Source of the DNA: Arcicella sp.
GTDB taxonomy: Bacteria; Bacteroidota; Bacteroidia; Cytophagales; Spirosomataceae
NCBI GenBank assembly: GCA_043769985.1
Contig: JAYVIV010000136.1
Coordinates: forward strand, 5,802-69,801
Direction: 5' to 3'
DNA length: 64,000 nt
Shown here: positions 3,221-23,354 of the stretch, one piece after another
Position numbering within the stretch: position 1 is the stretch's first letter
Layout: each line of letters opens with the position of its first letter
Translations under genes and position numbers: made by a program
The notes under the pieces: model-generated
Told to the model about the DNA's origin: nothing
Databases searched by the model: none
The model's input: only the letters and a program-made list of their open reading frames with translations

Positions 3221-6200
3221 GTTTCTTCCAAAAATTACGACTAAAAATTCTTTCAAATTTCCACCCTTTCGCTCGTAAACCCGCAGGAATGTAGGCGAAT
3301 GTTTCCTTCGGAGAAAGGTGTTCGTAATATAAATCATCATCCGTTAAGATTAATGATTCATAGTTTTTACTGTTTTTTACAGTTATGTCTGCAAATGGTA
3401 ACTCTTTGATATACGAGCCATGGTCAGACTGTGCGCCCCAGTGTTCCCCACCGACCACTCCATTAATTAATTGCTCCTTCAATAACCACTCTGCCTGATA
3501 ATTTTCTGAGCGGTGGGCTTGTGGTTTATAATTTCCTTCTGATACTTTTAGGGCATATTCCAAATAGCTTTTCAGTAATCTTGGACCTTCATTTTGTGCT
3601 TCTTCCACTCGTAATTGATTCGGCAAAATACTACTGATAATATATATTTTTTCTCTGGCACGGGTAATGGCCACATTCAAGCGATTTTCACCTCCTTGTC
3701 CATTCAAAGAACCAAATTGCATTGCCATTTTGCCTTTTGCATCGGGAGCATATCCGATGGAAAAGATGATAATATCTCGTTCATCGCCTTGCACATTTTC
3801 TATGTTTTTTACGAACAGCCCCCTAACCCCCGAAGGGGGAACTTGCTCGTCCGATTTGGACGTTAATTTTGTGTCGAAAGTTCCCCCTTCGGGGGTTAGG
3901 GGGCTGAGTAAATCTTGAATCAAACCTTGTTGTTTGAAGTTAAAAGTAACAATTCCGATTGATTTTTCGGGAGATGTTTGATGAATATTTTTCACTAAAT
4001 CAATGACCCTTTCTGCCTCAATTTGATTGGTGCTATTTTCCCAAATTCCATCCACTTTAAAATACTGAATAGCGGGTTTTTGAAGATTAATCTCTTGAAA
4101 ATCAGGCAATAACGATAAAGTATTTTTATAAAAATATTGATTAGAAAAATCAATTAGGTCTAAAGATTTGCTTCGATAATGACCTCGCAGTTGCGTTTGC
4201 GGTAAATATTGACAAGCTAAATCCAAGAGCGAATCTACTTCTAATTCAGGGTTGTCATCCGCATCGTTTTCAAACCTAACTCTGTACAAATCACTGGGTT
4301 GCAATTGTTTGGAATCACCCGCAATGACCACTTGCTTACCCCTGTATAATGCAGGAATACCTTGTTCAGCAAAACATTGTGAGGCTTCATCGAAAATGAC
4401 CAAATCGAAAATACCCGAAGCGTCGGTAGCCCCCTGCCCCCCTTCAAGGGGGCAAAGTGGAAAAATCGCAGAAACTGTTTCGGGAGAAGCCAACCAACAG
4501 GGAACAAGTTTAAACAATTCTTCCGAATATTCAGTAATTAATTTCCGAACTGACCACAATTTACGTTTTTTACCAACTTGATGCTTCAAATCACGATAAG
4601 TTATGGTATTTTGAAGTCGATTTTTTTCTAAATTTTGATACGTTAATTCTCGGAGTTTCAACAATAAAATCTCTTGACTTAGGGTTTGTTTTTTCTGAAC
4701 TGAATCCTGCAAATCAATTTCTAACTGATTCATTTTCAAAGAACTAACGCTTCTTAGAATTGGATATTTTTCTTCAATATTTTCAATCCAAGCTAATTTT
4801 AAACTGTTCATAAAATGGTCGGTGGGGACACTGACCATTACGGACAGAAGTCTTTTTTCAGGTAAAAACAATTCAATCATCGACCATTCTGTACGACTAA
4901 AAGATGCCCTCAATGAATCAGATTCTTGCATTAAATCGAAGTTTTCTTTTAGGTAAGAATTAATGTTTGATAAATCTCCCGTGGCTTGTCTGGGCGACCC
5001 CGTGTTCACAAGTCCACACGCAAGAATATCTATTTGATTTTTAGATAAATAATTATTCCAAACTGCCTGAATATCAATTAATTGCTGTGATTGTTGAATT
5101 AAGAAATTGATTTGTTTTTGGAAATCGTTCCATGTTGTTGTTCCCGTTGTTGTCTGTGTCTTCACAGACAACCCCATAGTCGTCTGTGAAGACACAGACA
5201 ACAACGGGTATGACGGCAATATTTTCGTCAACGGTTTCCATATTTTATTCGCTTTTTCGGCTTGATATAATTGTTGAAAATTACGTTCAAACCAACGATA
5301 TCCTTTACGTAGCCATATTGGATCTTCATTCCTATCCAATTCGCCAAATAAAAATCCCCATTCATTCCACCATTTTTCTAAGCCAATACGATTTTGGATT
5401 CTTTGTTGTAATTTCTGTAAATCTTCCAACGAAAGACTTAAGCCATTCGCCCTCGTAACATTCTGAATATTAGCTTTTTGATTTGAAAAAAAACGCCAAA
5501 CTAATCCACCAATAACATTCGACTTTGTGTCAATTGCTTCGTTTAACTTTGACAGAAAAGGTAATAAATGGGAACTTGGTAAGGTAATTTCAATCCCTTG
5601 ACCGGCAAAAAATTGAGCCACTTGTGCTTCTAATTCACCAATTTTTGTAGTATTGAGTTTAATCTTTTCTTGAATATTTCTACTAAAAACCTGATAAATT
5701 TTCTCATTTCCAATTAATGATAACAAATTCTGAAAACGTTCTTTTTCCCCTGAAATCTTTTCCAATTCTTGAAAATTTAAGATGTTTTTCAGAATTTCTG
5801 ATGATTCATTTTCAAGGTTTTGTACAAAATCGTGTACTTCTTGAACAACTTTCAAAATCTGTGAAATTTCTGAATATTGACGGTTTTGAAAAGAGAGGCG
5901 AGATTGCCAAAAAGAAGCCTCTGTGACTTGTCTGGGGGATTCCGTGTTCACCAATCCACTTTTTAATTTATTTTCATAAACGCAATATCTTTCAAATTTC
6001 TTCGAAAAATCATTTATCTCATTGAATTTGAAGTGTTTATAATCTTCTTTCAAATTCAAAAAAGGTTGATTTGGCGAACTTGTTAAGTATAATTCTTTTA
6101 CGGAAACACCGCATACTGAAACATCAAAAAGGGCATCTTTGAACTCTTGTAAAGTATCAGAAATTTTATCAATTTGACGGCTTTCTTGGGTAAAATTTCG

Positions 6201-20396: not shown

Positions 20397-21884
20397 CTAC
20401 AAATTTAACCACAATTTCAGATTCTCGTTCTTCCCATCCATTATTTCCAAATGAATCTTTCCTTCCTCATTCCACTGCATTTGCAAACCAAAAGCATCCA
20501 ACAACTCGTTGACCATGCTTTCGAGAGGCATATTTCCGTGGATGCAGCCTTTGAAATATTGGGATAATGAACGCCCATAAACTTCTTCACAAACTCGCTG
20601 ATAATCCGTTATCGAATAACCTACGCCCATTTTTCCGAAGCGTTCCCACATCGTTTTCATGACGGTCTCTAAGGATTTTTGATGTCCAAAACGCAAGCGA
20701 ATCATTAAATCCAAAATCAACGCAACAACCGCCCCTTTCTGATAAATTGAAACTCTACGGTGCGGAATGGCTTGCGAATATCCATCCAACCATAAATCAA
20801 AAGAAGATTCTACCAACGACTGAAAAGCCTTGCCATCTTGCTCAAAATGACGTTTCAAGACGGTTTCTAATTCCTTTAAATATTGTTCTTGCGTAAAAAC
20901 ATCCGACTGTACCAAAAATAAATCTCCATAATAAGTCGTAACACCTTCCGCTACAAAACCCGTTGAAAAGTAGTTTTCCTTCGTAAAATCATAAGGCATC
21001 ATCTCAACGGGACGAATTTTACAGATATTCCAAGCATGATACAATTCGTGTGAAGAAACGCCCAAAAGGTCATTATACAATCCATCGCCTTCAGAATCTG
21101 GTCCTAAGACAATCATTGTAGAATTCCGATGTTCTACGCCATGATAGAAGGAAGTCGGTAGAATCCAGTTGATAAAATGGTAATCTTTTTCTGGAAAATC
21201 ACCCATTACTTGAATTTGTTTCTCCGTAAATGCTTGAAAATCAATGAGTAATTTCGTCCAATTGGGCGTATGATTTCCCAAAAACCAAACGTGGAAATCA
21301 ACATTTTCCACTTGGTAGCTTTGATGTTGGAGGTACGGACTGGCGAGAAGAGGGGAATCGACTAAAGCCCCCCAACCCCCAGAGGGTGAGTCAAAAACTA
21401 CATTCAACCTTCCATCCTTGAAAGTACCAAAATTGGACTCGAAAGCTCCCCCTCTGGGGGCGGGGGGGGCTTCTACTTCCAACGCACAAGCCTCATCTAT
21501 ACGCCCTTGTACATAAGGCAAACAGTTTACGAAATTAACGTACATTACCGATTCATCCACGAACGAACTTCCTGCATTTTGGACATTAGCAAAATAAGTG
21601 AATTTGATAACAATCTCCTGTAAATCATTTGTTTGAATTAGCCAACGGTCTTTGGTGAGTTTGTGAAACAAGACCTCCCCCCCCAGCCCCCTCTCCGATA
21701 GAGAGGGGGGGTAAAACACCTCAAATAGTTGAATATTTTTGGCAAAATTTTGGAGTTCATAACGCCCAGGTCGCCACGCAGGGAGTTGCAGTTCGATGCT
21801 GTCGGACTGAATGTTATCAATCACCATTTCTATATTGAGGAAATGGCTTTGAGGGTTTTGGGAAGATATTTTGTATTTTATCAT
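20397..21884 (-). CDS. M61 family (glycyl aminopeptidase-like) metallopeptidase with two in-frame repeat inserts
   Basis: LPAWRPGRY, GVEHRNS, SHELYHAWN, EGVTTYYG. Confidence 0.88.
   Translation of the reverse strand: MIKYKISSQNPQSHFLNIEMVIDNIQSDSIELQLPAWRPGRYELQNFAKNIQLFEVFYPPSLSERGLGGEVLFHKLTKDRWLIQTNDLQEIVIKFTYFANVQNAGSSFVDESVMYVNFVNCLPYVQGRIDEACALEVEAPPAPRGGAFESNFGTFKDGRLNVVFDSPSGGWGALVDSPLLASPYLQHQSYQVENVDFHVWFLGNHTPNWTKLLIDFQAFTEKQIQVMGDFPEKDYHFINWILPTSFYHGVEHRNSTMIVLGPDSEGDGLYNDLLGVSSHELYHAWNICKIRPVEMMPYDFTKENYFSTGFVAEGVTTYYGDLFLVQSDVFTQEQYLKELETVLKRHFEQDGKAFQSLVESSFDLWLDGYSQAIPHRRVSIYQKGAVVALILDLMIRLRFGHQKSLETVMKTMWERFGKMGVGYSITDYQRVCEEVYGRSLSQYFKGCIHGNMPLESMVNELLDAFGLQMQWNEEGKIHLEIMDGKNENLKLWLNL
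21365..21472. repeat. Family B element inside the M61 peptidase CDS
   Basis: AAGCCCCCCAACCCCCAGAGGG...CCCCCTCTGGGGGCGGGGGGGGCTT. Confidence 0.85.
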
Positions 21885-21897
21885 AAGATTCTATGGC

Positions 21898-21967
21898 ACA
21901 CGGATTGAACGGATTAGACACGGATTTACAGATTTTTAAATCCGTGTCTAATCCGTTCAATCCGTGT
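21898..21967. repeat. Nonamer-periodic (CACGGATT) inverted element
   Basis: 30-bp perfect IR with a 10-bp spacer. Confidence 0.9.
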
Positions 21968-22057
21968 TCTATTTCTGCGAACAACCAAATTACTCATAAT
22001 CAATCATATAAAAACCAAAACTTTTAAAAAAGAGTTGGGGAATAATAATAAGTTCCT

Positions 22058-22065
22058 TACCTTTG
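22058..22065 (+). promoter_or_regulatory. Bacteroidota -7 promoter box TAnnTTTG upstream of rpmH
   Basis: TACCTTTG about 45 nt before the rpmH ATG. Confidence 0.65.
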
Positions 22066-22109
22066 CAGTCCTGTTTTAAGAACGCAACAAGATTTCAAAG
22101 ATACAAGTC

Positions 22110-22265
22110 ATGAAAAGAACATTTCAACCATCGGTAAAGAAAAGAAAGAATAAGCACGGTTTCCGTGAGAGAATGTCAACTCCAAACGGTCGTCGTACAT
22201 TAGCGGCTCGTCGTGCAAGAGGAAGACACAAATTGACTGTTTCTGACGAGAAGAGAGGTAAGTAA
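22110..22265 (+). CDS. rpmH: 50S ribosomal protein L34 (absent from the ORF track)
   Basis: Hand translation: [51 protein letters not shown]; directly upstream of rnpA. Confidence 0.97.
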
Positions 22266-22340
22266 TTCAGTGAATAGTTAATAATTAATAGAGAATAGTT
22301 AGTTCAACTATTACTTATTATCTTTTAATTATTAATTAAC

Positions 22341-22805
22341 GTGAAATTTACTTTTAAGAAGTCCGAAAGACTCAATTCCAAAAAAGTTATAGAACAACTC
22401 TTTGATAAAAAGGGTAGAGAAACAAACCAATCGGTTTTTCTCTACCCTTTTCGTGTTTCTTATTTAGGTGTTAGGGGTTTGGATTTAGGGGCGGCAGCCG
22501 TTGCTGTTAGTGAATCAGAGTCCGACACCCTAACCCCTAATCCCCAATACCCAACAGCAACGGCTGCCGTCCCTAATCCCCAAATTCTCATTTCCGTTTC
22601 CAAACGATTCTTCAAACACGCCGTTGATAGAAATCTCATCAAGCGTCGTACCCGTGAGACATACCGCCTGAATAAGCACCTTTTGCTACAAAAACCATCC
22701 TCCCAAATTCCAGCTTACATTGCTTTTGTGTATATTGCAAAGACAATCGAAGATTACGCCAAAATAGAAAAATCCATGAAGGCGATTTTTCAGAAAATGG
22801 TTTAG
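22341..22805 (+). CDS. rnpA: Ribonuclease P protein component with an internal repeat-derived insertion
   Basis: FTFKKSERL, SVSKRFFKHAVDRNLIKRRTRETYRL (RNR motif); follows rpmH; GTG start. Confidence 0.92.
   Translation: MKFTFKKSERLNSKKVIEQLFDKKGRETNQSVFLYPFRVSYLGVRGLDLGAAAVAVSESESDTLTPNPQYPTATAAVPNPQILISVSKRFFKHAVDRNLIKRRTRETYRLNKHLLLQKPSSQIPAYIAFVYIAKTIEDYAKIEKSMKAIFQKMV
22465..22586. repeat. Composite inverted repeat inside rnpA
   Basis: 17-bp perfect IR (22492-22508 / 22553-22569) embedded in TTAGGGG/CCCCTAA heptamers. Confidence 0.85.
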
Positions 22806-22866
22806 TTTTTGTTTGAAATATCGTATTTGATTTTGCGTTAAATGTATTGATATAATACTTGAAAAC

Positions 22867-23151
22867 ATGGAAAATATAAAGCAACGACTCTATAAAGTCA
22901 ATATCACGAAAGACCCCGAACAAGGATATTTTGTGGCAGAAGTGCCTACATTAAGCCCTTGTATTACTTACGGCGAAACCTTTGAGGAAGCCATAGAAAT
23001 GGTAAAAGAAGCCATTGAGGCAGTTGTGGAATCGAGATTAGAGAATGGTTATCCCGTGCCTGATGATAATGCAGAACTCGAAAAGAAATCAACAACAACC
23101 CATACTGTCCTAAATATCAACACTTTACCCTATCAATACGCCACAGCTTAA
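22867..23151 (+). CDS. hicB: HicB family antitoxin
   Basis: GYFVAEVPTLSPCITYGETFEEAIEMVKEAI. Confidence 0.88.
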   Translation: MENIKQRLYKVNITKDPEQGYFVAEVPTLSPCITYGETFEEAIEMVKEAIEAVVESRLENGYPVPDDNAELEKKSTTTHTVLNINTLPYQYATA

Positions 23152-23354
23152 TGGGATATTCACCAAAAGAAATTATCAAAGTGATAGAAGAAAATGGTTG
23201 GTATCTTGACAGAATTAGAGGCAGCCACCACGTTTATAAAAATGATGAATTACAAAAATCTGTACCTATCCCCATTCACGGAAAGAAGGATTTGGGGAAA
23301 GGATTGTTTTATAAAATATTGAAACAATGTGATATTGATAGAGAGGAGATTTAG
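23151..23354 (+). CDS. hicA: HicA family mRNA interferase toxin
   Basis: IRGSHHVYK, VPIPIHGKKDLGKG; overlaps the hicB stop. Confidence 0.9.
   Translation: MGYSPKEIIKVIEENGWYLDRIRGSHHVYKNDELQKSVPIPIHGKKDLGKGLFYKILKQCDIDREEI

Follow-up and report, generated by a model that had tools for sequence, protein, structure and literature searches.

Within rnpA, the gene for the RNase P protein, the genome of a freshwater Arcicella carries 40 codons whose DNA is built of heptanucleotide repeats and forms a hairpin. Our analysis indicates that this insert is probably a tolerated passenger, namely an STRR-like heptamer hairpin that sits in a permissive loop of RnpA and is read through. The gene was studied in a stretch of 64,000 nucleotides, here called the window, and in its counterparts from relatives. 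A long RnpA loop as such is normal for the Spirosomataceae and is not recent damage to a normal gene; the hairpin form alone is lineage-specific. That the insert is neutral, and how its hairpin was generated, is what we infer from the comparisons presented here.

The product of the gene has the features of an RNase P protein. The match to the Pfam profile PF00825 reached 53.6 bits, with the cut-off at 22.3, and spanned profile positions 1 to 108, the helix bearing the RNR motif included. The structural elements follow in the order of the family, and the gene is present as a single copy that starts 75 nt downstream of rpmH, a synteny kept across all Arcicella loci examined. A second intact rnpA, with this copy silent, would have spoken against the original prediction; the genome to which the window belongs (G000, metagenome-assembled, 5.16 Mb, 94% complete, 302 contigs) yielded one match only and no second copy. 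In an alignment of 42 sequences, residues A94, R97, N98 and R102 are invariant. An AF2 model built from 42 diverse sequences contains a helix at residues 14-20 (alpha1), strands at 29-34 (beta1) and 37-42 (beta2), the insert, a strand at 81-86 (beta3), the RNR helix at 94-111, a strand at 126-131 (beta4) and a helix at 139-153 (alpha3). The pLDDT is above 90 in the core, low for residues 43-80 and below 50 at 49-58 and 64-75, and the model places the insert between beta2 and beta3 as a surface loop without order. Each of the ten best Foldseek matches in the PDB is an RNase P protein; their TM values, normalised to the target, are 0.56-0.74. RNase P proteins are known to bind RNA through the central cleft and the RNR motif (PMC4919922). 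The features of the region are collected in Table 1.

Table 1. Features of the rpmH-rnpA region, with positions counted from the first letter of the window.
Feature	Position	Strand	Evidence or remark
rpmH (ribosomal protein L34), first of the rpmH-rnpA pair	22110..22265	+	Pfam PF00468, E 2.3e-21
rpmH-rnpA spacer, AATAGTT-type heptamer-repeat hairpin	22267..22340	+	fold -17.8 kcal/mol
rnpA, RNase P protein, 154 aa, GTG start, single copy	22341..22805	+	Pfam PF00825
H1, 15-bp perfect hairpin AAAAGGGTAGAGAAA / TTTCTCTACCCTTTT, codons 23-37	22408..22451	+	inverted repeat I6; separate from the insert
Insert, 40 codons (residues 42-81), peptide LGVRGLDLGAAAVAVSESESDTLTPNPQYPTATAAVPN	22464..22583	+	alignments; between beta2 (37-42) and beta3 (81-86)
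Left arm, G-rich heptamers TTAGGTG TTAGGGG TTTGGAT TTAGGGG, encodes LGVRGLDLG	22464..22491	+	direct repeat D2
Left 15-nt module GCGGCAGCCGTTGCT (AAAVA), with mini-hairpin CAGC-CGTT-GCTG	~22491..22506	+	indel among relatives
Central loop AGTGAATCAGAGTCCGAC (SESESD)	22509..22526	+	part homologous among Arcicella inserts
Inner right arm, CCCTAAC CCCTAAT CCCCAAT ACCCAAC, encodes TLTPNPQYPT	~22527..22555	+	inverted repeats I2-I5, pairs with left arm
Right 15-nt module AGCAACGGCTGCCGT (ATAAV), inverted copy of left module	22556..22570	+	indel among relatives
Outer right arm CCCTAATCCCCAA, two C-rich heptamers	22571..22583	+	direct repeat D1, inverted repeat I1

The insert is bordered by FRVSY, whose last residue is Y41, and by ILISVSKR, whose first is I82, and the encoded peptide lies, as predicted, between YPFRVSY and PQILISVSKR. 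About 12 of the 40 codons of the insert are the counterpart of the native loop in outgroups. The 120 nt form a hairpin, at the heart of which lies the 17-nt perfect inverted repeat of the original prediction, found again as CGGCAGCCGTTGCTGTT at 22492-22508 and AACAGCAACGGCTGCCG at 22553-22569; 100 shuffles gave no such 24-mer match. The repeat extends to arms of 31 nt (22478-22508 and 22553-22583) with 87% complementarity. The outer right arm, 22571-22583, forms a direct repeat with 22535-22547, and its pairing partner is 22478-22491. The heptamers said to wrap the inverted repeat are there on the left, where TTAGGGG (22485-22491) abuts the arm, while on the right the arm runs into TCCCTAA, which differs from the proposed CCCCTAA at one position; an exact CCCCTAA occurs inside the hairpin loop, at 22533-22539. 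Folded as RNA, a stretch of 141 nt reached -57.1 kcal/mol compared with -33.2 +/- 3.7 for shuffled sequences (z = -6.5), a value that none of 200 shuffles equalled, and the insert hairpin alone has an mfe of -51.9 kcal/mol (z = -5.1). A G-quadruplex was also considered and set aside, the left arm holding just two GGGG runs.

To place the insert in its lineage we collected 37 genomic loci, among them 22 full-length rnpA genes of Arcicella including that of the window. The closest proteins in a collection of 5.8 billion are all from Arcicella-like bacteria and have 134-161 aa. They share more than 90% identity outside the insert segment and are hypervariable within it, with peptides wholly different between lineages. 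An insert of 31-41 codons occupies the same site in 22/22 Arcicella loci; four outgroup loci (L023, L024, L027 and L056) have a loop of 12-14 aa, which in the first three takes up 12-13 codons. The M61 peptidase encoded nearby gave a tree that splits the genus into clade I (A. aquatica, rigui, rosea, gelida and lustrica) and clade II (A. aurantiaca, Arcicella sp. LKC2W, metagenome-assembled genomes and the window). All 16 clade II inserts are encoded by a hairpin, with z from -0.9 to -8.5, and the units of their arms vary by lineage: TTAGGGG, GTTGAAA/GTCGAAA, GTCGTAA/GTCATAA or GGATTTA. Clade I inserts are equally long and gave no significant hairpin (z +0.8 to -2.1). The sequence AGTGAA and an acidic S/E core stand at the centre of most clade II inserts, and an ES.EF motif is shared with clade I; because this centre is common across the groups, we regard the Arcicella inserts as homologous in position and core.

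The same tolerance of length extends through the family. Among 81 Spirosomataceae genomes from 51 genera the shortest loop has 11 aa and the longest 75. Some genera have 11-14 aa, and most have a low-complexity loop of 22-39 aa with no hairpin encoding (z about 0). In one genus the loop of 71-75 aa is encoded by GGTCTGACGGTACGTCTGACC palindromes with z = -7.9. The idea of an unusual insertion into a compact protein therefore did not survive the comparison, since cultured Arcicella and most other genera have non-palindromic loops of 22-41 aa. The long loop must hence be regarded as old and tolerated. The counter-case that the original prediction had itself set out, an equally long and non-palindromic loop in relatives, thus holds for clade I and other genera and does not hold for clade II. 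The hairpin may have been ancestral, with decay in clade I, or may have been gained in clade II. More generally, the beta2-beta3 loop of RnpA is a site that accepts 11-75 residues.

These comparisons also bear on whether the insert is an artefact of metagenome assembly. The genome is in 302 pieces, and in two relatives, L025 and L030, a truncated piece of rnpA is fused to unrelated DNA. Against this, the same architecture recurs in independent JGI, ENA and NCBI assemblies, including those of the isolates A. aurantiaca and Arcicella sp. LKC2W, which reduces the probability of an artefact to next to nothing.

The view of the insert as repeat-derived is corroborated by the rest of its genome. A scan specific for the unit counted about 89 arrays of the TTAGGGG type in G000 compared with 0-1 for control heptamers. 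Strict period-7 detectors miss the arms in rnpA because stop-avoiding substitutions break their periodicity. Fifteen hairpins of a G-rich and a C-rich TTAGGGG arm were found, the G-rich arm being 5' every time; the 14 besides that of rnpA adjoin gene starts or, in a single instance, lie within rnpB, and none is in a protein-coding gene. A BLAST search of the own genome with the 141-nt query found no full-length copy of the element, the matches being heptamer runs of 13-24 nt and the 15-nt module, and no donor copy for the insert was found. Pattern matches of the TTAGGGG type number 18-100 per genome in seven clade II genomes and zero in three clade I genomes, and the genomes without these arrays are the ones without a hairpin in the rnpA insert. 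Similarly, the GTCRTAA family, of which the rnpA arms of locus L011 are made, occurs at about 25 places in the genome of that locus and once in G000. Heptamer hairpins are depleted from coding DNA, with only 3 of 134 in the interiors of ORFs although these make up 71% of the genome, and for that reason the persistence of the rnpA hairpin throughout its clade is not trivial. In-frame hairpins of other families are common in the same genome, where 93 loci in 85 long ORFs have perfect stems of 13 bp or more. Our literature search found no paper that links Arcicella with palindromic repeats.

The gene for the RNA subunit of RNase P was inspected as well. At 594 nt, the rnpB of the same genome (G000:C64, about 4961-5554) is longer than the 380-nt gene of A. 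aurantiaca, and three heptamer hairpins lie in it, one at the tip of P12 (TTAGGGG), one in the P15-P17 region (AATAGTT) and one before the 3' strand of P4 (GTTATTA). At these three sites relatives have other unit families or nothing. With the rnpA insert and three rnpB hairpins in one genome, both subunits of RNase P have been colonised.

Frame 0 of the insert is free of stops in all 22 lineages, while the other forward frames contain 0-8 stops, 3-8 in most. Outside protein-coding genes, 12 of the 14 TTAGGGG hairpins are closed in all six frames. A perfect TTAGGGG array would bring a TAG every third unit, and exactly at that unit rnpA has TTTGGAT (GGT TTG). The third unit of the C-rich arm reads CCC CAA where the perfect repeat would give an in-frame CCC TAA. 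Judged by the sequence, such stop-avoiding changes bear the mark of selection on an array that ribosomes read. Because the frame is open in 22 lineages and the changes fall exactly at the would-be stops, we strongly infer translation of the insert as 40 extra amino acids, and the earlier proposal of an insert that is tolerated and translated gains support from the in-frame, stop-free reading in 22/22 lineages and from the stop corrections at two heptamers.

An insert that is cut from the mRNA, or bypassed by the ribosome as in T4 gene 60, would by contrast be relieved of constraints on frame and stops, yet 22/22 lineages are in frame and stop-free and their other frames are nearly all stopped. 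All indels among close relatives, those of the 15-nt modules included, are multiples of 3, there is no stop codon at a take-off site, and no intron or ribozyme of Rfam matched. Such removal or bypass, for which the strong hairpin and nothing else speaks, is in our judgement highly improbable. A search of Rfam over 21900-23000 returned no family at threshold and merely sub-threshold matches to miRNA hairpins. An intron, an intein and a translational bypass element were each ruled out as candidates on the evidence of frame and stops together with the lack of an Rfam family at threshold.

If the insert is translated, the loop itself might be useful, as an acidic arm that touches P RNA or the substrate, and the hairpin would then be merely the mutational route by which it was lengthened. 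A long loop in all Arcicella and most Spirosomataceae and the acidic centre (SESESD, ES.EF) of most Arcicella sequences would fit such an adaptive role. The beta2-beta3 loop is presumably the 'metal-binding loop' of the B. subtilis structure. In other bacteria the 'metal binding loop' of the RNase P protein is near P3 of the RNA (PMC2858038). However, the insert is hypervariable between flanks of more than 90% identity, loop lengths within one family span 11 to 75 aa and the AF2 model gives the insert no order. Furthermore, P3 of rnpB is about equally long in genomes with and without the hairpin and does not co-vary with the loop of the protein. We therefore rate an adaptive arm as quite improbable, and return to the reading of the insert as a tolerated passenger in asking what the hairpin does.

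Upstream of the insert, rnpA contains a second hairpin, H1, that behaves differently. Every Arcicella and most of the Spirosomataceae genera examined have it; in other Bacteroidota it is missing, as are the 4-5 residues that form its loop. H1 is far more stable than synonymous recodings, the median z being -4.1; for 20 of 24 sequences, 1% or fewer of the recodings were as stable. Its right arm has shifted by two codons between genera, and the nucleotide motif CTACC[CT]TTTT has been kept. As MAFFT misaligns this shifted arm between Arcicella and the other genera, a covariance model was used for the alignment, which showed compensatory changes, some of which alter amino acids (R/L to S/H). A T-rich run follows H1. 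The terminator scan made no call at H1 because the loop of 14 nt exceeds the limit of 8 in that scan. H1 may be a putative intragenic attenuator, and may thus be a new regulatory element of the rpmH-rnpA operon.

The neighbourhood of H1 is one of several reasons to ask whether the insert hairpin, too, is a selected structure. In that case an RNA or DNA structure would control rnpA and the peptide would be the price paid; it could take the form of a translational brake, of an entry site for RNase III/E or RNase P, or of an attenuator that holds RnpA far below L34. The hairpin starts 12 nt past H1, which is itself maintained family-wide at the nucleotide level. The rpmH-rnpA spacer is likewise a hairpin in every Arcicella examined, of the AATAGTT or the TTTGAAA type in relatives, and its type is uncoupled from that of the rnpA insert. 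One site in rnpA has been kept despite the rarity of heptamer hairpins in ORFs, and RNAalifold found double compensatory changes in 12 of 14 consensus pairs across clade II. On the other hand, neither the Arcicella of clade I nor almost any other genus has the structure, and within clade II it has decayed in L003, L006, L008 and L010 (z = -0.9 to -1.8). Its arms are built from the unit family that happens to be dispersed in the genome concerned, and a like turnover is seen at the three sites in rnpB, where there is no rnpA regulation. Taking both sides together, we consider control of rnpA by this hairpin, the chief competitor of the passenger reading, unlikely.

The compensatory changes deserve a comment of their own, since changes in 12 of 14 pairs are also expected from selection on RNA structure. 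We nevertheless attribute them to turnover and homogenisation, because the units of the arms match the dispersed families of the same genome, because several clade II lineages have decaying hairpins, and because the rpmH-rnpA spacer and rnpB likewise follow the pattern of the same site with a different family. According to the tolerated-passenger reading, the ancestral Arcicella loop would already have been expanded, in line with the length tolerance found throughout the Spirosomataceae. In clade II the DNA of this loop would then have been converted into a hairpin made of whichever unit family is dispersed in the respective genome, possibly by insertion, by gene conversion or by strand-switch copying from dispersed arrays. 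The rnpA mRNA would be translated straight through to give a disordered loop of 40 residues. Selection would act solely on the frame and on the absence of stops, and the hairpin would be a passenger and no device of RNase P. Loops with no insert, long plain loops, hairpins of several unit families and 15-nt indels thus form a natural series in which the entry and turnover of palindromes in coding DNA can be followed. The series is also suited to gauging how much 'covariation' arises without selection on RNA structure.

A bolder reading can be offered as tentative. In it, the heptamer hairpins of Arcicella clade II would be structure-targeting, self-renewing DNA, and permissive sites such as the RnpA beta2-beta3 loop, three helices of the RNase P RNA and the rpmH-rnpA spacer would be overwritten repeatedly by the active unit family, so that covariation appears without selection on structure. 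Separately, H1 would be a genuine cis-regulatory element in the rnpA frame, for example an intragenic attenuator that sets the ratio of L34 to RnpA.

Several known classes of repeats resemble the insert in part. The Rickettsia palindromic elements (RPEs; Ogata et al. 2000, 2002) are in-frame palindromes in unrelated housekeeping genes which are translated and tolerated by the fold (PMC10969869). Like them, the insert is palindromic hairpin DNA (about 100-150 bp in RPEs) that lies in frame at a structurally permissive place. RPEs, however, have a conserved full-length sequence and peptide, whereas the arms of the rnpA insert are arrays of 7-nt units that vary by lineage. The hosts differ as well, Arcicella being a free-living member of the Bacteroidota and not an intracellular alphaproteobacterium, and most heptamer copies in Arcicella are intergenic. 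As it lacks a conserved full-length sequence or peptide, the insert is not an RPE.

The heterocyst-forming cyanobacteria reportedly carry STRR heptanucleotide repeats, which are associated with the names of Mazel (1990) and Vioque (1997) and, in the work of the latter, are said to occur in helix P12 of rnpB. The insert shares with them tandem 7-nt units and dispersed, mostly intergenic arrays of few families, and the P12 tip of the own rnpB carries one. Differences lie in the units, which in Arcicella are TTAGGGG and not CCCCAGT-like, in the phylum, and in the pairing of arrays as hairpins of a G-rich and a C-rich arm; moreover, the Arcicella hairpin is located in the gene for the protein subunit and is in frame. 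Since lineage and units differ from those of the cyanobacterial STRR1-3, the insert is not a classical STRR. We know of no report of an STRR-like array in an RNase P protein gene that is read in frame. The present case suggests that STRR-like heptamer hairpins, which are chiefly familiar from intergenic DNA and cyanobacterial rnpB, are able to live in frame in the protein subunit of RNase P of a free-living member of the Bacteroidota.

MacGregor (2015; PMC4679880) described direct repeats of the heptamer TAACTGA that are often placed shortly before start codons and occur in Beggiatoaceae, Cyanobacteria and some Bacteroidetes. Their distribution is similarly patchy and includes Bacteroidetes, and several TTAGGGG hairpins of Arcicella are likewise near gene starts. 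Unlike the Arcicella arrays, those repeats are direct and not inverted and paired, and no in-frame copies in essential genes were reported for them (PMC4679880). Taken together, the rnpA insert is closest to the RPEs, in being in frame and tolerated, and to the STRR repeats, in units, dispersal and presence in rnpB.

The two 15-nt modules were followed in an alignment of nine close relatives. The window shares the left module with L059 and L060, and the module is cleanly missing from L061, L004, L003, L015 and L002. The inverted module on the right occurs in the window and in L005, and L060 has it as the variant AGGAACGCCTGCCG; it is missing from L059, L061, L004, L003, L015 and L002. A MITE, considered as a further candidate, would have terminal inverted repeats, a target-site duplication and a related autonomous IS; the arms of the insert are inverted, and no target duplication was visible in the comparison with the insert-free outgroups. 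Small dispersed repeats (SDR) of about 21-27 nt are said to have been described in cyanobacteria by Elhai et al. in 2008, in Genome Res 18:1484, a paper to which PMC3116915 refers. The module is like these in being a mini-hairpin with clean presence or absence and no visible target duplication, and in being dispersed and nested in a heptamer array. It differs in its length of 15 nt and its unrelated sequence. In its genome GCGGCAGCCGTTGCT has four exact copies, and a doubly compensated variant, CGGCAGGCGTTCCT (CAGG-CGTT-CCTG), has about 14 copies inside a longer repeat; it is in this CAGG-CGTT-CCTG form that the right arm of L060 carries the module.

A long RnpA insert is also found in the high-GC Spirosomataceae genus g28, in which RnpA from both loci (L052 and L053) carries an insert of 71-75 aa in the same beta2-beta3 loop as in Arcicella. 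In g28 it is repeated GGTCTGACGGTACGTCTGACC palindromes that encode the insert (z = -7.9), whose peptide reads GLTVRLTD..., and this represents a separate hairpin invasion, of independent origin, at the Arcicella insert site. In the same g28 genomes rnpB, the RNase P RNA gene, is likewise long (approximately 500 nt). The rnpB gene of the Arcicella genome itself (G000) measures 594 nt, compared with 380 nt in A. aurantiaca, and contains three heptamer-repeat hairpins. In relatives the three hairpin sites are occupied by different unit families or are empty. The coordinates of these and the following features are compiled below.

Features in and around rnpA, in rnpB and elsewhere in the genome (C, contigs of G000; L, genomic loci of relatives and, for L069, of G000)
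Feature	Location	Description
rnpA with long insert	L052:101-664; L053:98-649	Spirosomataceae genus g28
rnpB (RNase P RNA)	G000 C64 ~4961-5554 = L069:1501-2094	outside window; RF00010, 204.9 bits
rnpB hairpin 1	P12 tip	TTAGGGG type
rnpB hairpin 2	P15-P17 region	AATAGTT type
rnpB hairpin 3	before 3' strand of P4	GTTATTA type
rpmH-rnpA spacer	window 22267-22340; homologous spacers in L002-L022	heptamer hairpin
H1	window 22408-22451	15-bp perfect hairpin, rnpA codons 23-37
HicB-like + HicA-like pair	window 22867-23354	immediately downstream of rnpA
Partial rnpA	L025:1500-1734; L030:1500-1632	3' part only, two metagenome-assembled relatives
Dispersed repeat, examples	G000 C9:953/1034; C56:11120/12322/12425; C151:5526
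M61 peptidase	window 20397-21884	adjoins rpmH

In all Arcicella examined, the spacer between rpmH and rnpA consists of a heptamer hairpin, built from either the AATAGTT or the TTTGAAA family as alternatives, and the choice of family does not match the rnpA insert groups. Some spacer copies additionally contain a tiny GCGGTTCGCCGC hairpin module at variable position. A further hairpin within rnpA, H1, is kept across most Spirosomataceae genera and shows compensatory substitutions, some of which even change the encoded amino acid. Against synonymous recodings, H1 stands out as far more stable (median z = -4.1); a T-rich run comes after it, and it may act as an intragenic attenuator.

Downstream of rnpA, the HicB-like/HicA-like gene pair is shared only with the closest relatives (L015, L025), and RelE/ParE-type genes take its place in the others. 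In the partial rnpA copies the adjoining DNA is unrelated: one is joined to a rhodanese-like ORF, the other to a tRNA gene. The copy of L030 stems from the same MAG as the complete rnpA of L005. These pieces may reflect chimeric assembly or may be genuine fragments.

Hairpins also occur within other reading frames: counting perfect stems of 13 bp or longer, there are 93 loci genome-wide in 85 long ORFs of G000. The commonest of the encoded peptide families are APPAPEGGAF...KAPPSGAGGA and LLSVSSQTTT...LSVETQTTT, and the M61 peptidase contains SLSERGLGGEV and PPAPRGGAF...SPSGGWGA. Finally, a dispersed repeat that includes ...CTCTGTGGCTCTCTG CGGCAGGCGTTCCT GTGT... is present at about 14 places in G000, and its core is a doubly compensated variant of the 15-nt mini-hairpin module from the arms of the rnpA insert.
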